Shown: positions 16,702 to 37,333 of the stretch, one piece after another
How the letters are laid out: every line of letters begins with the position of its first letter
Numbering within the stretch: the stretch's first letter is position 1
Assembly (NCBI GenBank): GCA_001643675.2
Contig: LSRY02000058.1
Location: 124,001-188,000, forward strand
DNA from: Monocercomonoides exilis PA203
Taxonomy: Eukaryota; Protista; Preaxostyla
Reading direction: 5' to 3'
Length of the DNA: 64,000 nucleotides
Notes under the pieces: model-generated
Seen by the model: only the letters and a program-made list of their open reading frames with translations
What the model was told of the DNA's origin: nothing
The model's database searches: none
Translations under genes and position numbers: made by a program

Positions 16702-17308
16702 GTAGCAAACACTGCACATGGAATTCACTTCGCATTTATTATTCTTTCCCCCATTTAGACTTTTTTTCGCACAAACAAATTTATGAAAACAACAATTTTA
16801 TTATCTTCATCAACACATTTTGAAAAATAAAGCAATCTCTTTTTTTTTAAAAGAATGTCTGATTCATATCATTGGGAAAAAAGGAGAGAAAGAAACAAAT
16901 GCACGCTTCAAACGCAAGTGTGTATTTTAAGACCGCTCTATCATAACAATAATTGTTGATCTATTTCTATCGCAGAAATCTGAAGAAAGAGAAAATTTGT
17001 ATATTTTTTCAATTTCATTTCAATCATCTGCTGGAGGGAAGGGGAGATTTTTTATATTAATTTTTGTTGAGAATGTGTACAACAAGAGCAATTGAGCGAG
17101 AATGAATAACGCTTTAATATGAAAAAGGTATATGACGAACTGTTGCCAAACATCCAAACATAAAAGAGAGAGGTTTCCCAACGATTGTCAGAAGATGAAA
17201 TGTTTGGATGTATTACAATGTTCTTTGAAATACGTTTATAGACAGCATTTCACGTGTCAGTGATGTTTTTGTATTTAAAATGAAACATGAAAAAAACACA
17301 AAAATAAT

Positions 17309-17380
17309 TGCTCCTACCTGGATTCGAACCAGGATTACAGGATTCAGAGTCCTAGGTGCTAACCATTACACTATAAGAGC
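17309..17380 (-). tRNA. tRNA-Gln(CTG)
   Basis: 72-nt cloverleaf GCTCTTA..TAGGAGC-A with anticodon loop CT-CTG-AA, T-loop TTCGAAT and a downstream T-run. Confidence 0.95.
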
Positions 17381-17388
17381 TTCGCTTA

Positions 17389-19070
17389 GTCGGGGAGGAA
17401 ACCCGATCCAGGGAGGAAACCCGATCCATTTTTGATCAAAAACTTTGATTAATGTTTTTGATCAAAACAATGGAAAAGAAACCTTCTCTTGTCAGAATTA
17501 AAGCATCGAGTGATATGCGTTCTATTGGAGATGAGTTTATCAAGGCCTTGTATGCCTATGATATTTTGCAATATTCCGGTCGTGAAATCGAGGAAAGCGG
17601 ATTGATTTCGAGAGGATGTTTGGTGAGAGCCTTGAAAGCAAGAAAAGAAGGGAGAGATTTAAGAAAAAATGGAAGACCAACATTGTTTGCAAAAGCAGAA
17701 GAAGATGAGTTTGAAGAGAGGATTTTGGAGGACATTAGGATCGGAATTTATCACACGAAACGAAATATTATGCAAATGGTGTGAAAACAAGTCTTTTCAT
17801 CATTTTTTTTAACTTTTTTTGTTTTTCAGGCAAATGAATTATTGTGCAAAAAAAGAAGCGAAGGAGAAGAAATCAAAACTGTGGACAAGCATTGGGTTGA
17901 TCGTTTTTTGTTAAGACATAAAAAAATCAGCTTGCAAAAGCCGAAACCGCTGCCCATTGGAAGGGCTGCACATTCATGCAAAGCTGTATTAATTCCGTTT
18001 TTCGACGCCTACGAAAAATATTTCTTCAAAGTGAAACCTATTCCTCAATTGATGTTCAATATTGATGAAACATCAACAGTTTTTTCAGCTTTGTTAGAAG
18101 AACAGGTAGCTTCATCATCTTCTGTACCATCATCAATCACTCCAGAATCGTCTCTGCCAACCTCCACATCCATCATTGTAATGACTAGCGCCGATGGGTG
18201 CAGATACCTTGCACCAGTTCTCATTCCCTTCAAAACAATTCCAGCTGAATATCTTCTTGACACAACCTCAACTGAAGTTTTTATTCCAACCACGTCAGGC
18301 CATTTAACATCGTCATTATTTGCTGAATTGTTCAAAAAAATATTTTTGCCAGAAATAAACAAAAAACGGTGCGCCATAGGAAAGCAATATGATCATGCTA
18401 TGCTGGTCATGGATGGAGGTGTGGGTCATTTCAGCGATGAAATGAAAAAAGTTTGCAGAGACAATTTAATAGATTTGATAAAACTTCCTTCTCACACCTC
18501 TCATATTCTACAGCCCAACGACCAATTTGTGTTTGCGAGTTTAAAGAGGAATTTCAGCAAGGCAACGGAAAGCGGGAAGGCTACGACGGCTGCGGAGAGA
18601 AGAGAAGCATTTATTCGAACATTGAAAAATGGACTATCAGCTGCTAGTTACCCCTCAACGATAATTGCTTCGTGGAGGGTTTGCGGCTTATTTCCAATGG
18701 ACAAAAATGCAGTTTTGAATCGTTTGCCTGATGCCCCTCCTCAATGGGCTGCCTCACAAATAAATCCTGAAAGAGCACCAGAAGGTGCTTCATTTGGAGC
18801 AGTCTATTATTCATCTGACGATGATCATCAACTTTTTGCTTAAATTAAGACTTTTTCTCAATTTCAGTTAATAATACGTTTATTTGAATTTCTGTTTTTG
18901 AAAATCGTGCTTATTATTTTATTCAGTTTTTTTTTCTGTTAACAGTGCATTTTTCATATATTGAACATATTTTTTTCGTCAAAAAAACATAAAATTTCAT
19001 CAATTTATCTTAAATGTTTTTTTAGATCATTGGGTCGGGTTTCCTCCCTGGATCGGGTTTCCTCCCCGAC
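17389..19070 (+). mobile_element. pogo-like (Tc1/mariner, DD35D) DNA transposon, copy 1
   Basis: TIR GTCGGGGAGGAAACCCGATCCAGGGAGGAAACCCGA at both ends, flanked by TA, enclosing a transposase gene. Confidence 0.92.
17452..18843 (+). CDS. pogo-family DDE_1 transposase (intron 17779-17829; ~446 aa)
   Basis: HWVDRFLLRH (CENP-B-type HTH), NIDETS, VMDG, LPSHTSHILQPND, with 35 residues between the 2nd and 3rd Asp. In-frame splice QM|ANE. Confidence 0.9.
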
Positions 19071-19682
19071 TACTTAGTAGACGGTATTCGAATCTTGAGC
19101 AAAAAATAAATTTGATTTTATAACATAGATGTCAACCTCTTTTTTTGGAATTGATTCAATCAAATTGGTACTTTCTCAATCTCACTTGGTCCAAAATAGG
19201 AATTACGAAATGTTTGAAAAACTGATCTTATTATTTTTTTGTTTCTTATTTTATGTGATTCCTTCGTTTCGATTATTCACAAAACTTTGATATTTTATGC
19301 ATCGATATAAAATCCATGGTGTTTTGATCTGTTTTCAGCAAATTTTGAGTTTTTTTATAGTTCAAAAGGTTTGCATTTATTTTTAATTCTTTCACATGAT
19401 ATCCTTGCGATTGAGCATTTATATTAATTCTTATGATTATTTTCATATGTTTTAAGCTATTAACAGCTGTGACGTTTTATTTTAAATCAGGATCATTAAT
19501 AATACTTTTTCAACGTTTATTTCATATAAAACTCAAGGGGAAACAACGATTTTTGTTTCATTTCAATATTTTTCATAAATATTTTATGACATGCATACAA
19601 TAAGTTATATTTTTTATTCTCTTTTATTTTTTTTTTTAAAAAAAGGTGAATGATTGAAAAATAGAAATAATAAAAGAAAAAA

Positions 19683-21233
19683 CTAATTTCTTTGTTCCAA
19701 AAGAAGCCTTAAAGGACTTGGCGTAATTCTTTTCGCCTTTTCTGCTTCTGATGAACGTGGAGTTGAAGGAAAAGGAGATGAAGAAGATGCAGAAGAATGT
19801 TGGATTGATTTCCACTGACCTGGTAAACACCAGGCCATAGAATTATCATCTTCGTCACTATCATTTTCTTCCAAATCAATCCTTTTCGTTTCATTTCTAT
19901 CTTTTTCTTCTTTTTCTTCTTTTTCTTCTTTTTCTTCTTTTTCTTCTTTTTCTTCGATTTTTCGCTTTTCTTTCTTTTCTTCTTCACATTTCTTTTTCAG
20001 TGCGCCTTCCTTTTCATTCTGTGAAATATCTGAATAAAAAAAAGAGAAAATATAATGGTTGAAAGAGTTATCAAAAAAAATCAAATAAAAGATAATGAAT
20101 ATAAATATGGGTAAAGTAATGAATTATAAACTGTCTATTTGTGCCTTTAAAGTAGTTATTGTGGGTGTAATTGACAAGCTCGGATTCAATCTATTTTTCA
20201 ATTTTATTCGATATCTCTCATTCGCTATTTGTCTTGCTTTTTGTTTTTGTAAATGCTCCGTCCACAAGTTGTCCAAAATACGCTGATTTGCTTCCCCATC
20301 TGCTCTTGTCAATGGATTTCGTAATATATGAAAATTGGTCAAACAACAAGCCACACAGAAATAATCAGCAACCCTTTCAACCTCAAATGGCCACTGTCTT
20401 CTAAAAACTGAAAAGAGGGTCTTCAGACGACCGAAAAACCGTTCCACGATAACTCGATGAGTTGCTAGCTCTGGTGTTCCCACTGGTTTGGTGATAATTG
20501 CAGCCAAATCAGGTCTCGCTCCTATGTAAGCCGAATCAGCCAATATTTTTGCCCCTCCCAAACGATCCAAAAATTGAGGATAATGATCTTTAAAGACTGT
20601 AAAGTCATGAGTAGAGCCAGAATGAATTGCACTGATAGTACTTGCTGTCCCAACTTTGGGATTGACTCCAACCTCAGCTTTCACACAATATGTGTGATGT
20701 TTCCCGCTAAAAAACTTTTTCCCAAAGTCTAATCGACCTCCAGGTCTGTTGATGGGAATGATTGTACAGTCCAAAACAATTCCAACCTCCTTCATCACTT
20801 CAATCCTGTCAGGGCGAAATGTCAAAAACAAATCTGCTAATGGAGCTCTGATATGAGAAACAATACTGTGAAGAAGTCTGACAAGAGCGTTTTGAGTTTC
20901 ATAGAAAGGTGTGGATAATAAAAGTGTGAGTGTCGTTGAACCGTGATGAAGAAAAGTGAGTAACAAGAATAACTGTTCATCAAAATTGTTGATTGCTTTC
21001 AGTTTCCCTCGACGATGAGGAACTTCCATTTGAAGAATGTGAATGAGAAAATCAAATTCTTCTTTTGTGAATCCAGTAAGTCGAAAAAAAGAAGAAACAG
21101 GATCATCAAAATAGTCACAAGCTTTTTTGATGATGGAAATTTTTTCTTCCTTTTGAAGTGATTCATTCCGTTGTGGAATAATATTTCTCCTCTCCACACT
21201 CTTCAAAACGTCCAAAAAATTTGAATGTGACAT
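19683..21233 (-). CDS. PIF/Harbinger/ISL2EU-like (DDE_Tnp_4) transposase (probable intron 20030-20131)
   Basis: FRLTGFTKEEFDFL, LDCTIIPINRP, FSGKH, GSTHD, LADSAY, RVIVERFFGRLK..F. A GT-AG intron links it in phase to the charged ORF 19683-20029. Confidence 0.85.
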
Positions 21234-21434
21234 CAGAAAAAAATAAGAACAACTTTTGTTTGATCAAAACCAAATATTGAAATTTTGTTATTAATGATCA
21301 CGAAACCAACATTTGTGAATATGAATGTTATTGAATCAAATCAAATAAGTTTGATTCTATTCGGTTTTCAATCGATATAATTAAGTGTTTATATATCTTT
21401 TGCGGATGCATCAAATAAAATACAAAAGGTTCTA

Positions 21435-23064
21435 GTCGGGGAGGAAACCCGGGCCAGTGAGGAAACTCGGGCCTCACCCATAGTTTGATTTTTATGATCT
21501 CTTATGAAGAAAACAATTAATACTGCATCAAGACTTTGCGCAACTGCTGAAATTCGTGAGTTGGAAGATGCGCACTTGAAAGCAATTTACCTGCACAACA
21601 TTTTGAACATTCCTACAAGAGAAATCGCCCGAAGCCAGGTACTTTCTCGCTCTTCAGTGCAAAGAGCTCTCGCAGCGGAGAAAAAAAGGAATACGCCTGG
21701 AAAATGTGGAAGATCAACTCTAAAAGAGAATTCAGACAAACAGTATTTAACTACTGTGACAATTCACAATGCAGAGCATGGAACGTTTCATTCTAAAATG
21801 GAAATAACCCAAATGGTCTGGATTTCGCTAATTATTATTTGTTTTATTTTTTTTTTATTATTCAGGCAAATGATTTGTTAAAAACAAAGAGAAAAGAAGG
21901 AGATGAAGTAAAAACTGTGGACAAACATTGGGTGAAACGATTTTTGAAAAGGCACATTGAAATTAGTCTTGCAAAACCAATTTCTTTGCCTTTAGGGAGA
22001 GCAGCCCACACATCGAAATATACAATCGGTCCCTTCTTTGACGAAGTGAAGAAATTGTTTGAAAGCATCAACCCAATTCCACAGCTATTATTTAACTTAG
22101 ATGAAACTTCAACATTTTCATCCAAACAACAACCTGAACTTGTCGCTTCTTCGTCATCAACACCTTCCACGATTGTTCCTGAAGTTCACTTGCCAAATTC
22201 CACAACAATTATCTTCATGACAAGTGCAGACGGGTGCCGATATTTAACACCCATATTAATTCCATTTTCGACGCTTCCAGAAGAATACAAGCTAGGAACA
22301 ACTTCGCATGAAGTGTTCATTCCTTCTTTATCTGGTCATGTTACATCTGCAATTTTTTTGGACTTGTTCAAGAAGTGCGTAATTACAGAAATTAGAAATA
22401 AAAGAATTGCAGTCGGAAAGAAAGAAAAGCATGCAGTCCTCATCATGGACGGTGGAGTGGGGCATTTCCAGCCGGAAATTCTTCAATTATGTAAGGATAA
22501 TTTAATTGATCTAATAAAACTTCCATCGCATACTTCACACATTTTGCAGCCTAATGATCAATACATTTTCGCAAGTATGAAAAGGGTATTTGGAAAAGCC
22601 AAAGAAAGCGGAACAACTACCTCAGCATCTCCTAAAAGAGAGGTTTTTGTTGAAATCCTGAGAAATGGACTTGCAGCTGCTTCGTATCCTGAAACAATAA
22701 AATCATCTTGGAAAAGCACAGGGTTGTGGCCATTTAACCCAGAGAAGATTTTATCTAATCTTCCTGACAATCCTCCAGAATGGGCATTATCTGGAGTTGA
22801 ACCCAAATCTGCACCTATCGGATCATCATTTGGAGCTGTTTATTATTCTTCTGATGATTTATCGGATTTGTTCTGAAAACAATTAATTATTAATTCCATA
22901 TCACTGAAGCTTTTTTGGAATGCACTTCTTTTATATAATAATGAAATATCTTAATGTTAACTGTTTTTCTTTGTTTCTATTCATGAAATGAAATACAAAC
23001 ACTAAAAAAAGTGAAAATAAAAAATTCCCATTTTAATACCAATGGCCCGGGTTTCCTCCCCGAC
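21435..23064 (+). mobile_element. pogo-like DD35D DNA transposon, copy 2 (diverged subfamily)
   Basis: TIR GTCGGGGAGGAAACCCGGGCCA at both ends, flanked by TA. Confidence 0.92.
21504..22876 (+). CDS. pogo-family DDE_1 transposase (intron 21816-21865; ~440 aa)
   Basis: NLDETS, IMDG, LPSHTSHILQPND. The intron is at the same QM|AN position as in copy 1. Confidence 0.9.
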
Positions 23065-23317
23065 TACTTAAAGCAGAATTTTATCTTTATCAGATATTGA
23101 AAATTACTATTTTAATAAAAAAATAGCTTTTACAAACGAAATTTCCTTTATCATCATTAATTTTGTTTTTTTTTAAATAAAACTTCTTATTTGCATTTCA
23201 AATTAAATATAAGATATTTCATTCATCATAAACATTATTAATATTTTTTTAAACAAGCATTCATTCGAATTATGGTGAAATATAATTCTATTTGGAAATT
23301 TTCGGCAAAAGGAGATG

Positions 23318-23759
23318 ATAGGGGAACACGAATTTTTCAAATTCTTTATATAAAACGGAAATAATATTGTATAAGAATCATTTATAAATTAATTAAAATT
23401 TGAGATCATCAATCATAAATATTTCTTTTTTTCAATCAAAACATTTTGATCTGACCCAGTATTTTTTTAATTATTTGGGTTAAAATTCTATAATAATCTC
23501 CACATTAATAGATTGGTTTAGGTTCTAGGGTTTGCGTAACAGATCTTGGGTTTAGGGTTTGTTCCCGTTCTTCTTTATAAGGTTAGCACTCAAAAATAAC
23601 ATGAAAATTTATTGATCTATCCCATAAATACTAAGAATCCTTGATTATTATTTATCAAAAAAATTAGATGATCTCAAATTTTTATTAACTAAAAAATGAT
23701 TCTTATACTATATAGAATTCGTTAATAATAAAAAATTAGAAAAATTCGTGTTCCCCTAT
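23318..23759. repeat. Foldback/MITE-like unit (mirror copy 25557-25998)
   Basis: Perfect 21-bp IR ATAGGGGAACACGAATTTTTC, with imperfect pairing extending ~90 bp inward and ~50-80 bp outward. Confidence 0.7.
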
Positions 23760-24053
23760 AATATACATTTGCCAAATTTTCAAAAATTCATTTTCAAAAT
23801 TTTGAGTTTAATCTCAAAAATATACACCATTTATTATTCGAAATTGGAAAATTTACACCAAAAAATTCTAATTCGAAAAAAATAATTCAAATTCGGAATT
23901 AATAATTCAATTTCGAAATTTATTATTTCGATTTAGAAAAATAATAATTCTTTGATTTGTGGAATGAATAACTTATGTTTTGCAGTAAATTTTCTCTTAA
24001 TTTTTATCTCATTTGTTCACCTAGTTTATCATCATTTGAAAAATGATGCATTT

Positions 24054-24298
24054 GGTGATTATTTTTGAAATCATAACTTTTTTCGGGGTAATGATTTCTC
24101 CAAAATTGTTTGATATTGGGAAAAGATTTTGTATTCAAATGCTAAAATTATCACAACTGTTTCAAAAACAAATGTTTTCACTTCAATGAAAATGAAGATA
24201 TTTTGAATAAGCCTATACATGTTTTTTTGTTGATATTCAAAATGAATTCTAAAACGAAAATATTTGATTGAGATAATATGATTTCAAAAATAATCACC
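24054..24298. repeat. MITE-like unit with a perfect 22-bp inverted repeat (mirrored at ~25017-25261)
   Basis: GGTGATTATTTTTGAAATCATA at 24054-24075 and its reverse complement at 24277-24298. Confidence 0.65.
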
Positions 24299-26253
24299 CA
24301 ATTTTCATTAAAAAATTCATTTATTTTAATTGAAAAAATTTTTTAATTTAATGTTTATTCAAAAATTTTTTGAAATTCATTTTCATATGAAAAATTGATG
24401 CTTTTCTTATTTTCACCAAAGAAACTATTAAATTATTGTGAAAAACATTATCGTCTTTTGTTATTCAAAAAATGTGATTGAAAATTTCCTCTTTTCATTA
24501 GGTTATTCAAAAGAATGAATTGTTTTAACAATTAATTTTCATAAGAGTGTTGATTTTTGTAAATAAAAAATAAACTTCAAAAAAAAATAAAAAGTCGTCT
24601 GAATTTTGTTGAAAAGTTCCTTTTGTTTAATTTTCAAATAAAATAAAAACATAGTATTTCGATCAAATTTCTGTTACCAGTCACCATATTTTACTGTTAT
24701 GAAAACAAAATTCAGACGACTTTTTATTTTTTTTTTGAAGTTTATTTTTTATTTACAAAAATCAACACTCTTATGAAAATTAATTGTTAAAACAATTCAT
24801 TCTTTTGAATAACCTAATGAAAAGAGGAAATTTTCAATCACATTTTTTGAATAACAAAAGACGATAATGTTTTTCACAATAATTTAATAGTTTCTTTGGT
24901 GAAAATAAGAAAAGCATCAATTTTTCATATGAAAATGAATTTCAAAAAATTTTTGAATAAACATTAAATTAAAAAATTTTTTCAATTAAAATAAATGAAT
25001 TTTTTAATGAAAATTGGGTGATTATTTTTGAAATCATATTATCTCAATCAAATATTTTCGTTTTAGAATTCATTTTGAATATCAACAAAAAAACATGTAT
25101 AGGCTTATTCAAAATATCTTCATTTTCATTGAAGTGAAAACATTTGTTTTTGAAACAGTTGTGATAATTTTAGCATTTGAATACAAAATCTTTTCCCAAT
25201 ATCAAACAATTTTGGAGAAATCATTACCCCGAAAAAAGTTATGATTTCAAAAATAATCACCCAAATGCATCATTTTTCAAATGATGATAAACTAGGTGAA
25301 CAAATGAGATAAAAATTAAGAGAAAATTTACTGCAAAACATAAGTTATTCATTCCACAAATCAAAGAATTATTATTTTTCTAAATCGAAATAATAAATTT
25401 CGAAATTGAATTATTAATTCCGAATTTGAATTATTTTTTTCGAATTAGAATTTTTTGGTGTAAATTTTCCAATTTCGAATAATAAATGGTGTATATTTTT
25501 GAGATTAAACTCAAAATTTTGAAAATGAATTTTTGAAAATTTGGCAAATGTATATTATAGGGGAACACGAATTTTTCTAATTTTTTATTATTAACGAATT
25601 CTATATAGTATAAGAATCATTTTTTAGTTAATAAAAATTTGAGATCATCTAATTTTTTTGATAAATAATAATCAAGGATTCTTAGTATTTATGGGATAGA
25701 TCAATAAATTTTCATGTTATTTTTGAGTGCTAACCTTATAAAGAAGAACGGGAACAAACCCTAAACCCAAGATCTGTTACGCAAACCCTAGAACCTAAAC
25801 CAATCTATTAATGTGGAGATTATTATAGAATTTTAACCCAAATAATTAAAAAAATACTGGGTCAGATCAAAATGTTTTGATTGAAAAAAAGAAATATTTA
25901 TGATTGATGATCTCAAATTTTAATTAATTTATAAATGATTCTTATACAATATTATTTCCGTTTTATATAAAGAATTTGAAAAATTCGTGTTCCCCTATCA
26001 TCTCCTTTTGCCGAAAATTTCCAAATAGAATTATATTTCACCATAATTCGAATGAATGCTTGTTTAAAAAAATATTAATAATGTTTATGATGAATGAAAT
26101 ATCTTATATTTAATTTGAAATGCAAATAAGAAGTTTTATTTAAAAAAAAACAAAATTAATGATGATAAAGGAAATTTCGTTTGTAAAAGCTATTTTTTTA
26201 TTAAAATAGTAATTTTCAATATCTGATAAAGATAAAATTTTGCTTTAAGCGAA

Positions 26254-26325
26254 GCTCTTATAGTGTAATGGTTAGCACCTAGGACTCTGAATCCTGTAAT
26301 CCTGGTTCGAATCCAGGTAGGAGCA
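26254..26325 (+). tRNA. tRNA-Gln(CTG), second identical copy
   Basis: Exact reverse complement of 17309-17380. Confidence 0.95.
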
Positions 26326-27188
26326 ATTATTTTTGTGTTTTTTTCATGTTTCATTTTAAATACAAAAACATCACTGACACGTGAAATGCTGTCTATAAAC
26401 GTATTTCAAAGAACATTGTAATACATCCAAACATTTCATCTTCTGACAATCGTTGGGAAACCTCTCTCTTTTATGTTTGGATGTTTGGCAACAGTTCGTC
26501 ATATACCTTTTTCATATTAAAGCGTTATTCATTCTCGCTCAATTGCTCTTGTTGTACACATTCTCAACAAAAATTAATATAAAAAATCTCCCCTTCCCTC
26601 CAGCAGATGATTGAAATGAAATTGAAAAAATATACAAATTTTCTCTTTCTTCAGATTTCTGCGATAGAAATAGATCAACAATTATTGTTATGATAGAGCG
26701 GTCTTAAAATACACACTTGCGTTTGAAGCGTGCATTTGTTTCTTTCTCTCCTTTTTTCCCAATGATATGAATCAGACATTCTTTTAAAAAAAAAAAGGGA
26801 TATTTTATGAAAGAAAATGTTGATTCTTTATTTTCAGAACATAATTCTTCTTATCTAATGCTAATGTCTCCGAAAAGTTAATTATGATAATAGATACATA
26901 TAATATTATCAAAGACGATAGAATTGCGTTCAAAAACAGAAAATGAATGATTTAAACATTCTTTTTTAATTACTGATAATTTTCAATCATAAAAGGCAAG
27001 CCGATAAAATAAAAATATAACACGAGGAAAATGCAACAAACATGCTAATTACAGATATTTATCCAGTCATATCGCATGAAAATTTCCAATGATATCACAA
27101 CAAATCCAAAAATCTCTTCATTATCAAAAAAAAAAAAAAAAAAAATAAAATAAAATAAAATATAATAAAATAAAATAAAAATATTTTT

Positions 27189-33067: not shown

Positions 33068-35783
33068 TCATTGCTCTTCTTGTTTTTCATGAGAACAATA
33101 ATGCTCATGCTCATGTTCAGGTTTCTTCTTCTTCTTCTTCTTCTTTTTCTTCCTCCTCATCTTCCTCTCTTTTTCTTTCTCTTCCTCTTCCTCCTCTTCT
33201 TTTTCACCTTTCAAATAATAATTCTTCATTTGTATTTGATTATCTGATGATAAAATAAAAACAGAAGGATTTCGAATAGATTGACTCAACAATGAAAGAT
33301 CATTGGAAGAATAAACAGGAATGAAAGAAGAAGAAGAAGGAAGACAAGAAGGGTTAGAAGGAAGATTAAGAGGAAGATTAAGAGGAAGATTAAGAGGAAG
33401 AGAAGGAGGAAGAGAAGGAGGAAGAGAAGGAGGATTAAGAAGATTAGAAGAAATTGAAGAACTTGAAGGAAGAGAAGAATTAGAAGAATTAGAAGAATTA
33501 GAAGGAAGACAAGAAGGGTTAGAAGGAAGATTAAGAGGAAGAGGCAACAAGAGAGGGGAAGATGAAGGAAGAGGAAGAGGAAGAGGAAGAGGAAGAGGAA
33601 GAGGAAGAGGAAGAGGAAATGCATAGGAAACATTGGAAGGAGGAAGAAGAGAAGAAGAAGAAGAAGAAAGAGAAGAAGAAGAAAGAGAAGAAGAAGAAGA
33701 ATTTAAAGAATTAACAGAAGAAGAAGAGAAAGAACTTGTAGAAGCAAACAAACCAAAATTCTGAGGAGGAAGAAGAAGAGGAGAAGGAGCAATAGAAAAT
33801 TGAAAGGGAATATTTTTTGATTGAATAGCAGGAGGAGAATAGGAAAATGAGAAAGAAAGAGGAGAAACAGAAGAAGAAGAAGAAGAAGAGGATGAGGAAC
33901 AGGAAGAGGATGAGGAAGAGGAAGGAGAAGAGGAAGAGGAAGAAGAAGAAGAAGAAGGTGAAGGAAAATAAGGAGAAAATTGAATTTTCAGTTGTTCTTT
34001 TTCTTCTTCTTCCTTCTTCTTCTTCTTCTCCTCTTCTTTTTCTTCTTTTTGCTGTTGAATAGAAGAAAGAAGAGATTTTGAATTTAAATAAGAATTTGAA
34101 TGAGGAAGAGAAGAAGAAGAAGAAGAAGAAGAAAGAGGATGCGGGTGAACAAAATAAGGGAGAGAAGAAGGAAGAATAAGAGGGACATGAAAAGAAGAAG
34201 AAGAAGAGGAGGAGGAAGAAGAGGAAAGTGAAGATGAAGAAGATGAAGAGGAATATGAAGGAGAAGAAGAAAGAGAAGAAGAAGAATTCGGTGTTTCTGG
34301 TATTAAAGATGTATTAATAGCAGGCGAAATCAGATTTTCGATCTCTTTTCCATCCAAAATTTTCGTTCTTTTATTTCTTTTTGGGTTTTCCCTTATTTTT
34401 CTTTTCTTTATTTTTTCTTTCTTCAAATTATTTCTTCTTCTTCTTCTTCTTCTTTCTCTCTCTTCTTCCCTTTCCCCTTCTTCTTCTCTTTCTTCTTCTT
34501 CTTCTTCTTCCTCCTCTTCCTCTTCTTCGTTATTCTCCCTCTCTTCTTCACTGTCTTCTTCCAAATATTCACTCATTTCTGTCTCATTCTCAAAAATTGG
34601 ATGTATTTCAGGTGTTTTTATAGCAAATTCATTGAAAATTGGCAACTCTTGTGTCAAAATAAGGTTATTTGATGGAGTTTTCATTGAAAATGAGTTTAAT
34701 TCTTCTTTTTCATAGTCTTTTTCTTCTTTTTCAGTTATTTTATCTTTGATTTCTTCTTCTTCTGTTCTTTCAGATTCTTTTATTTCTTCTTCTTCTTCAT
34801 TTCTTTCTCTTTCTAAAAATACAATTTTTGGTAAAGGTGTTTGCAATGTTGGTGATTGGGTTAGTTTTTCATTGTTTTCTTCTTCTTTTTCTCTTTCTTT
34901 TTCTCTTTCTTCTTTCTCTCTTTCCTCTTCCTTTTTATCCTTTTCTATTTCTTCTTCTTCTTCTTCTTTGAATAACATGACATTGTTCATGCCATTATTC
35001 TTATCTTTCTGTTCATGATTTTCTTCTTCTTCTTCTTCTCTTTCTTCTTTTTCTTTTCTTTCTTTTTCCTTTTCTTCTTTTTCGATTTCATTACCTTTAT
35101 CATCTTGTTTATTAGATTTTTCTCTTTCAATATTTGAAATATGATTGCTTATTCTTTGTTTATCTGTTTTATCGATTGCATTGGAAGAGGAAGAGGAAGA
35201 AGATGAAGAGGAAGAAGGATAAATAGAAAGAGGAGGAGAAGAAAAGGAGGAGGAGGAAGAAGAAGAAAAGGAAGAAGAAGAAGAAGAGGAAGAAGAAGAG
35301 GAAGAGGAAGAGGAAGAAGAAAAACAATTAGAAGGAGAAGAAGAAATGACAATAGAAGAAGAAAGAAATTTCTTAGAAGGAATAAAAGGAGAAGCCTTTG
35401 AAGACAAAGAAGAAGAGAAAGAAGAAGAAGAAGAAGAAGAATTTTTATGATGAAGAAGAAGATGAGGTATGAAATTGGTTGGGAATGAAGAAGAAGAAGA
35501 AGAATTTGATGAATTTTGAGGAAAAGAAGGAAAACAAGAAGAAGAAGAAGAAGAAGGAAAATTAGAAGAAGAAGAAGAAGAAGAAGAAGAAGAAGAAGAA
35601 GAAGAAGGAAAACAAAAGGAAGAAGAAGAAGAAGAAGAAAGAGAAGAAGAGGGATAAGAAGGAAAGTTGCATGTTGAATATATTGGAGGTAATGATGAAT
35701 TGCAATTATTATTATTATTATTATTATAATCGGTGTAAATGAATGAGTTTATAGGACAAAGAGAAGAAGAAGAAAAGGAAGAG

Positions 35784-35818
<35 letters not shown>

Positions 35819-37333
35819 AGAGGAGGAGGAAGAAGAAGAAGAAGAATTTGAAGAAAGAGAAGAAGGGTAAATAGAAGGAGAAAGATAACAAGAAGAAGAG
35901 GAAAGAGAAGAAGAAGGATTAAAAGAAGAAGATGAAGAAGAAGAAGATGATGATGCTAATAGAAAAGAAGAAGAAGAAACAATTGAAGAAGAAGGAGAAG
36001 AAGAAGGAGAAGGAGAAGGAGAAGAGGAATAAGAAGGAATTGAAGAACACAAAGAAATATTTGGTTTATTTGATAGAAATGACAAAGAATTTGAAGAAGG
36101 AGAAGGAGAAGAGGAAGAAGAAGAAGAAGGAGAAGAAGAAGAAGGAGAAGAAGGAGAAGAAGAGGGAGAAGAAGAAGAAAGAGGAGAAGAAGAAAAAAAG
36201 GAAGATGAAGAAAAAGAGGATGAAGAAGAAGAATTTAAAGAATTTAAAGAAAAAAAAGAAGGAGGAGAAGAAGAAATTAAGGAAGAAGAGGAAGAAGAGG
36301 AAGAAGAGGAAGAGGAAGAATTAAAAGAAGAATTTAACGAAGAAGAAGAAGAATTAAAAGAGGAAGAAGAAGAAGAAAAATTAAAAGAAGAAGAAGAAGA
36401 AGAAGAAGAAGAAGAAGAAGAAGAAACAGAATCACCATAATATTTGGAATTATTTTGAAGCAAGAAAAAATCAGAAAAATGCTGAAAAGACGAATTTTGA
36501 GAAAGAAATATATCATTTTTGGGTTTGATAGAAGAAGAAGAAGAAGAATGAGAAGAAGAAGAAGAAGAGGAAGAAAGAGAAGAAGAAGAAGAAGAAGAAG
36601 AAGAAGAAGAAGAAGAAGAAGAAGAAGAAGAAGAAGAAGAAGAAGAAGAAGAAGAAGAAGAAGAAGAAGAAGAAGAAGAAGAAGAGGAAGAAAGAGAAGA
36701 AGAAGAAGAAGAAGAAGAAGAAGAAGAAGAAGAAGAAGAAGAAGAAGAAGAAGAAGAAGAAGAAGAAGAAGAAGAAGAAGAAGAAGAAGAAGAATAACTA
36801 AAAAGATGAGATGGAGTGGCAGTGTAATGTTCAAAGGATGAAGCTAAATCAGGTGAAGAAAGAGGAGAAGAAGAGAAAGAAGAAGAAAGAGAAGAAGAAG
36901 AAGAAGAAGAAGAAGAAGAAGAAGAAGAAGAAGAAGAAGAGGAGGAGGAGGAGGAGGAGGAGGAAGAGGAGGAAGAAATAGAAAATTCATCTGAAGAATG
37001 AAGAGAACGAGATGAAAAGCTAAAATAATCGTTTTCCTTCTGTTTCAGTTGAATCTGATGGTTTTCTCTGGGATGAGGAAGAGGAAGAGGAAGAGGAGGG
37101 GGAAGAGGAGGGGGAAGAAGAGGAGGAAGGGAATTACCATTACCATTACTATTATTATTATTGTTATCTTCATCGTTATCAGAAGCTATGGAAAGAATGT
37201 GTAAGAGAAGAAAATAAAAAGAAATTTTTTTATAATCGAATCAAGAGAAAAAAATAATGTTGAAAAAATAAATCAAAAATAAAAATAAAAATAAAAATAA
37301 AAATAAAAATAAAAACAAAACAAAGAAACAAAG

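Follow-up and report, generated by a model that had tools for sequence, protein, structure and literature searches.

Co-stacking of pogo-like and DDE_Tnp_4 transposons upstream of a tRNA-Gln gene in Monocercomonoides exilis and possible landing sites common to both families

Introduction

Retroelements are known to insert position-specifically at Pol III starts, and Ty3, Tj1, Tca8, DGLT-A, TRE5, and NLTR-A are named in the available text of PMC5911963 as retrotransposons found upstream of tRNA genes; insertion at a distance from tRNA genes has been seen in retrotransposons according to the accessible part of PMC3706591. The target-specific DNA transposons in the literature covered (Dada, Pokey) insert inside the RNA gene. 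Within the literature covered, as far as the available texts go (including PMC7175516, with most subscription papers and Repbase Reports outside the coverage), no cut-and-paste element upstream of tRNA genes and no description of the elements reported here was found, and the IS481EU paper mentions neither M. exilis nor tRNA. Amongst pogo transposons, the accessible text of PMC7386202 gives TAA and TAAA duplications for Fot and Fot-like elements, and a DD35D spacing for these elements that is also found in Passer.

The oxymonad Monocercomonoides exilis has 17,983 gene models and 37.8 Mb of repeats (45.97%; PMC8767320, seen in part), which puts the genome at about 82 Mb, and 153 tRNA genes (PMC6759080, seen in part). 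The locus described here lies in a stretch of 64,000 nucleotides from M. exilis PA203 (contig LSRY02000058.1), hereafter the window, in which a tRNA-Gln gene is immediately preceded by three transposons belonging to two unrelated families. Read contigs from four runs (X1–X4) of one sample, perhaps the source of the window itself, were used as a check of the assembly and not as independent biology.

Results

A stack of three transposons upstream of tRNA-Gln

The original prediction had placed the 5' end of a minus-strand tRNA gene at 17380, a duplicated TTA at 17386–17388, and the start of an inverted repeat at 17389. These coordinates were confirmed: the tRNA gene lies at 17309–17380, and the repeat begins with GTCGGGG (Table 1). 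The insertion that it had read upstream of the tRNA is real and young and lies at about the Pol III start region; it proved to be not one element but three stacked elements spanning 17387–23066 (5,682 bp), beginning 6 bases from the 5' end of the tRNA and ordered outward from it as pogo-like element A, DDE_Tnp_4 element H, and pogo-like element B. M. exilis accounts for 10 of the 12 protein matches of A and for 12 of the 17 of H.

Table 1. Features of the tRNA-Gln locus, in window positions
Feature	Position	Strand	Remarks
3' flank of tRNA copy 1; outer left arm of the inverted duplication	16837-17308	-	
tRNA-Gln(CTG) copy 1, occupied allele	17309-17380	-	ARAGORN; Rfam RF00005, 65.8 bits
Target site CTTA (TAAG on the tRNA strand)	17385-17388		Positions -8 to -5; compared with the empty allele, 26246-26249
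Element A, pogo-like	17387-19072	+	1,686 bp, TA at each end included; exact inverted repeats of 38 bp
Transposase gene of A	17470-17778, 17830-18843 (exons)	+	440 aa, open; GT..AG intron; matches P0013
Second CTTA, between A and H	19073-19076		
Element H, DDE_Tnp_4 (PHIS/IS5-like)	19077-21432	-	2,356 bp; flanked by TA; lacks terminal inverted repeats
Transposase gene of H	19683-21233	-	Open reading frame 21233-20124 plus predicted C-terminal exon ~20030-19683
Element B, pogo-like	21433-23066	+	1,634 bp, TA at each end included; exact inverted repeats of 24 bp
Transposase gene of B	21504-21815, 21866-22876 (exons)	+	440 aa, open
Third CTTA, outer end of the stack	23067-23070		
Native 5' region of tRNA copy 1, pushed away by the stack; inner left arm	23071-24593		
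High-copy repeat region at the palindrome centre	24050-25264		Dozens of contigs, their flanks differing, stop at 25263-25267
Unoccupied target site TAAG, 5' of tRNA copy 2	26246-26249	+	
tRNA-Gln(CTG) copy 2, empty allele	26254-26325	+	ARAGORN; Rfam RF00005

The insertion site is fixed by a second, inverted copy of the locus that is empty. The region 16837–17388 matches 26246–26797 in inverted orientation (552 nt, 99.8%) and 23071–24593 matches 24704–26245 (99.8%), so that the arms of the inverted duplication, 16837–17388 plus 23071–24593 against 24722–26797, are ~2.07 kb long and differ in 5 of 2,076 alignment columns. Excision in silico of the 5,682-bp stack restores the empty site except for one substitution. 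Upstream of tRNA copy 1, the stack has taken the place of the entire native flank, and the intact twin close by may have buffered its displacement.

The palindrome and the stack could in principle be artefacts of chimeric long reads, and amongst the contigs listed none bridges A and H, with all runs coming from a single sample. This explanation is extremely improbable: the insert and point changes set the two arms apart, an X2 contig spans the empty junction (record 15, 25858–26288; 0 other letters, 1 gap), and depth in X1 is 192 at the duplicated flank, compared with 57–108 at five single flanks. Further, contigs fit the left junction of B in X2 and X3 and that of A in X3 (one contig), and X1 also misses other short repeat-to-repeat junctions.

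The inverted duplication, which doubled the tRNA gene, is very young, with a 128-nt spacer (24594–24721), and is centred on a high-copy repeat at which it likely arose by a fold-back event. Up to 68 X1 contigs end at one place in this repeat (24050–25264), which contains inverted repeats of 25–26 bp at 24050–24075 and 24277–24302 and appears to be a MITE-like family, and which dominates the loose contig ends (1,176, of which the 24 listed include no element-end flank). A stretch of ~500 bp (23290–23787 and 25529–26026) with 121-bp arms, 79–81% complementary, lies 240 bp upstream of the empty tRNA site and may be an older MITE. Reading 23071–26245 as a TA-flanked foldback element was ruled out, as the tRNA and 480 bp beyond it are also mirrored; the low depth of the site-adjacent stretch in X2 and X3 counts against it as well. 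Elsewhere in the window, the minus strand at 33068–37240 holds a 1,390-codon open frame in which poly-serine runs predominate and GC and AT skew are extreme.

Pogo-like elements A and B

Elements A and B are assigned to the pogo superfamily by domain, spacing, and ends. The predicted transposases match Pfam DDE_1 (50.1 and 45.2 bits, cut-off 22; A at 3e-13) and HTH_Tnp_Tc5 (22.7 and 24.2 bits, cut-off 22.2) and have a DD35D catalytic spacing, with 35 residues from the second to the third D as counted on the translation; the transposase of B is identical to P0017 (KAH7815998). The pogo-end sequence is TAGTCGGGGAGGAAAC and variants, and the lengths of the inverted repeats are counted with the terminal TA. 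The 19-mer of the original prediction matches the window four times (17387, 19054, 21433, 23048; none in 100 shuffles), and these matches are the ends of A and B. Prokaryote genomes gave no matches, and the two matches to the 19-mer in metagenomes (L001, L002) were rejected as chance, lying in GC-rich DNA that lacked the second repeat unit and a tRNA. Viral contigs gave one distant, uninformative match for each family (23% for L003 and 27% for L004), and no tRNA was found with L003.

Element H

The ends of H were set by H-right/TA/H-left junctions in two runs (X1, X2) and agree at a single base before the first mismatch, thus forming no inverted repeat. These junctions could be tandem copies or circles, and the high contig depth of H suggests several near-identical copies. 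The main open reading frame matches Pfam DDE_Tnp_4 (74.7 bits, cut-off 24.8; 8e-21) and, weakly, IS5 (NF033581; 27.6 bits, cut-off 140), and the nearest named relatives outside M. exilis are Phytophthora DDE_Tnp_4 proteins (27–36%). A C-terminal exon is likely spliced to the main frame: three paralogues (P0027, P0029, P0043) carry the transposase and the same C-terminal tail in one protein. The tail (19683–20030) is conserved in four paralogues, with an acidic stretch, a W-x-LP-x-QW-K/R-S motif, and a terminal PL-x-x-LL; the stop ending the main frame (20124–20126) is altered in collapsed contigs of other copies (20125 T>A).

The original prediction had named Harbinger, a family label that is not supported for H. 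No inverted repeats were found, the flanks are TA, and the search for a second, Myb/SANT gene returned no frame >68 aa lying mainly within 19075–19680, although a gene split by many introns is conceivable. A 146-aa frame was considered as a separate second gene and ruled out, as it has no family above cut-off and corresponds to the transposase tail of the paralogues. H is PHIS/IS5-like but does not show these Harbinger features. With its single gene, TA flanks, and absence of inverted repeats, H matches none of the individual PHIS groups whose duplications are given in the text covered.

Target-site duplication

The empty site reads G-CT-TA-AAGC and the filled site G-CT-[TA A TA]-CT-[TA H TA B TA]-CT-TA-AAGC. 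The TTA of the original prediction does recur (17386–88, 19074–76, 23068–70), together with the preceding C; it is one of several equivalent readings. TA is invariant, and the left side of B reads CTA, not TTA. TTA as a Harbinger duplication was ruled out, H itself being flanked by TA. The shortest account has three events, in which A and B, with ends that include TA, duplicate CT and H duplicates the TA at the left end of B; the same letters can also be read as a duplication of four bases (CTTA) with unequal ends, or as TA duplications accompanied by CT remnants. At the tRNA, the CT at 17385–86 is likely the duplicated pair and the TA at 17387–88 the invariant end of the element.

TA occurs at all four ends of A and B and at nearly all other pogo ends in the read contigs, and the empty allele demands an extra CT-TA per pogo-like element beyond the TA. 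At other loci, four to five contigs per run diverge directly after GACTA and one other locus continues with CTTA (X1, X2, X4; the chance of at least one in six is about 0.04), so that TA is invariant and the extra CT-TA recurrent, not universal. The pogo-like elements may duplicate CT rather than TA, and a longer duplication has precedent in the TAA and TAAA of Fot and Fot-like elements.

It is also conceivable that A, H, and B moved as a composite through the left inverted repeat of A and the right inverted repeat of B, so that the tRNA site was hit once. The outer 19 bases of A and B are exactly alike, the 99.8% likeness of the duplication arms leaves little time for three events, and gene models of the subfamily of H itself were not retrieved, so an identical stack could exist elsewhere. 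Set against this, the inner A/H junction has the CTTA of the host site and five other pogo–H pairs combine different subfamilies (see below), so that stacking would still want a cause; we regard a composite as highly improbable.

Stacking across the genome

The survey took in every member of 10 clusters of pogo and 12 of H proteins. GenBank accessions were available for 20 pogo models and 24 H models; two H entries lacking an accession, the short pogo match P0053, and unnamed M. exilis-like matches were left out. Accession numbers were assumed to follow contig order, with which contig sizes and locus tags are consistent. An H model occupies the next accession number for 5 of the 20 pogo models (0.054 expected; maximum of 2 in 20,000 shuffles), and 22 of the 44 models have a neighbor of either family (0.21 expected), under a shuffle null that takes no account of gene-poor regions. 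Same-family neighbors overlap in the part of the protein covered and are therefore separate elements, and the five pogo–H pairs represent different subfamily combinations. Loci outside the window include those at KAH7827031-36, KAH7825431-32, KAH7822208-09, KAH7816775-76, and KAH7832369-70, along with the solo B copies KAH7826553 and KAH7818596. Stacking is undercounted, because B scores as a singleton despite its three-element stack. Base-exact H-right/TA/H-left junctions at other loci, involving two distinct right ends, occur in X1 and X2; X1 also contains, away from the tRNA-Gln locus, a pogo end followed by GA and then a start like H-right. The stacking in the original prediction is thereby borne out as a genome-wide habit of both families.

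The 44 models fall in 31 loci, 20 of them with one annotated model, a distribution that fits about 57 equally used sites (41–94). A set of 153 equally used sites is rejected (P 0.0006) and 153 unevenly used sites are compatible at gamma shapes 1 and 0.5 (P 0.13–0.52), with P 0.02 at shape 2. The effective number of sites is of the same order as the count of tRNA genes. The two families likely have a few dozen landing sites in common. A general preference for promoters or open chromatin, in which elements are drawn to a wider class of start sites or to TA-rich DNA free of nucleosomes and tRNA starts make up the smaller part of the targets, would account for one tRNA amongst several non-tRNA flanks and for the AT-rich consensus of four flanks in X1, with its TATAT start (see below). 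This is improbable, since thousands of sites exclude the observed stacking (P 2e-13 at 1,000) unless their use is extremely uneven.

Clustering is also expected if the elements attract one another. Transposases that favor the terminal TA of an element already in place could seed arrays anywhere, with the first landing at a tRNA owed to chance or open DNA, and rich-get-richer growth clusters in the same way as a small fixed set of sites. Both families leave a TA beside G or C ends, H sits in the terminal TA of B, H–H and pogo–H junctions recur, the six other pogo flanks in X1 show no tRNA, and the region 5' of the tRNA already holds other repeats. Against such mutual attraction, the ends of the two families have only TAG in common, which in a genome of 82 Mb is not enough for recognition, a copy of the host CT/TA site borders both A and B, which are not nested in one another, and the landing beside a tRNA demands a coincidence of 4e-5 to 1e-4 per locus. 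On balance we consider it rather unlikely.

A tRNA start as the possible anchor

Adjacency to a tRNA is known from one locus, the array at tRNA-Gln, and it was this locus that prompted the finding. There the insertion, at -8 to -5, lies within the ~30 bp or less upstream of the mature tRNA 5' end by which Ty3 and DGLT-A are recognized, and the offset of the array matches that of retroelements targeting Pol III starts. The chance of lying ≤20 bp upstream of one of 153 tRNA genes, as given above per locus, becomes 0.001–0.003 for any of the 31 loci, a figure that takes no account of the window having been picked for this coincidence. With all three transposase frames open and close copies in existence, the tRNA-Gln site was hit recently, and probably more than once in the short time after the duplication.

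Flanks at other loci were read from X1, where the search with the A/H junction gave 11 records, 8 of them listed and six carrying pogo flanks. In two singly read flanks no tRNA start occurs in the first 30 bases. The other four, merged, give an AT-rich consensus (4 G+C of 30) beginning TATAT, for which the simulated P is 0.17 with no tRNA, 0.04 with one, and 0.005 with two amongst the four flanks, in a simulation that rests on an assumed base composition and tie-breaking. Two of the four resemble the left end of B, which at this locus is oriented toward the tRNA, so that strict targeting in a fixed orientation is disfavored by the flank data. The X1 flanks are unbroken for 61, 359, 731, 903, and 1,204 bases by our reading; the four of 359–1,204 bases count against a tRNA, since a multicopy tRNA would usually break them. 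Going by the depth table, X1 lacks the A/H junction of the locus itself, and its tRNA and B/H junctions are not amongst the four flanks. The sample favors far-side ends, because repeat-to-repeat junctions, those on the tRNA side included, give short contigs. By an eye count, 15 of 28 places in the X3 consensus agree with the tRNA flank of this locus, which would be expected were the tRNA junction one of its four flanks.

Discussion

The explanation we favor, tentatively and as something short of probable, is that a few dozen sites marked by the host attract both families, and that these are most likely Pol III gene starts; targeting of tRNA starts is our best, unproven guess at the cause of the common hotspots. 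Under this explanation a bound Pol III start complex (TFIIIB, by analogy with Ty3, DGLT-A, and TRE5) would tether the transposase or expose the DNA, the transposase would take the nearest TA-containing site, and later arrivals would reuse that site so that arrays build up, while some copies may land elsewhere. At tRNA-Gln, A and B would each have inserted at the CT/TA site with a short duplication, in an order between the two that the letters leave indistinguishable, and H would then have entered the terminal TA of B and duplicated it. The conserved C-terminal tail of each family is a candidate tether, and no motif common to the tails of the two transposases was seen. The fuller claim, that two unrelated DDE families (pogo-like and single-gene PHIS/IS5-like) converged on oxymonad Pol III starts and built mixed arrays there, with the pogo-like elements possibly duplicating CT, is a little more doubtful; it would make them the DNA-transposon equivalent of the targeting seen in Ty3, DGLT-A, and TRE5. 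A safe-harbor strategy, as the original prediction put forward, may underlie such a preference.

If true, a pogo-like transposase acting at tRNA starts would extend host-factor tethering to simple cut-and-paste enzymes and would be a candidate for a small, site-biased gene-delivery tool. Even without the tRNA anchor, it wants explaining that two unrelated families stack together, exact to the base, at a few dozen sites.

Compared with known systems, as far as the available texts describe them, H has the DDE_Tnp_4 transposase of the PHIS group (PIF/Harbinger, ISL2EU, Spy, Pangu, Nuwa; PMC4482050). Harbinger elements have TWA duplications, two ORFs with a Myb/SANT protein, and inverted repeats, whereas H has TA flanks, one gene, and no such repeats; ISL2EU has AT duplications and a YqaJ ORF and Spy makes no duplication, also unlike the TA-flanked, single-gene H (PMC4482050). 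Elements A and B resemble Fot and Fot-like pogo elements in DDE_1 and HTH_Tnp_Tc5 domains, DD35D spacing, a 440-aa transposase, a length of 1.6–1.7 kb, short inverted repeats, and TA ends, and differ from those described in the likely CT (or CTTA/TAAG) duplication and in stacking at common sites (PMC7386202).

Dada elements are likewise DNA transposons linked with multicopy small-RNA genes and, as with H, have no terminal inverted repeats (PMC3706591, PMC8869645). Dada recognizes a sequence within the gene (A box or anticodon region) and inserts there with 6–7-bp duplications, using a MuDR/hAT/P-like transposase (PMC3706591, PMC8869645), while the transposases here are DDE_1 and DDE_Tnp_4, the tRNA gene is intact, the insertion lies upstream, and the duplication is 2–4 bp. 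The tRNA-upstream retrotransposons have proven genome-wide enrichment and, for Ty3 and TRE5-A, contact with TFIIIB (PMC5911963), unlike the M. exilis elements, which are cut-and-paste DDE transposons with one tRNA-adjacent locus. As in the group of Ty3, DGLT-A, and TRE5, only a few bases separate the insertion in M. exilis from the mature 5' end of the tRNA downstream, close to where Pol III starts, and, as with the tRNA-upstream retrotransposons, unrelated classes of elements occupy the same sites in a compact genome.
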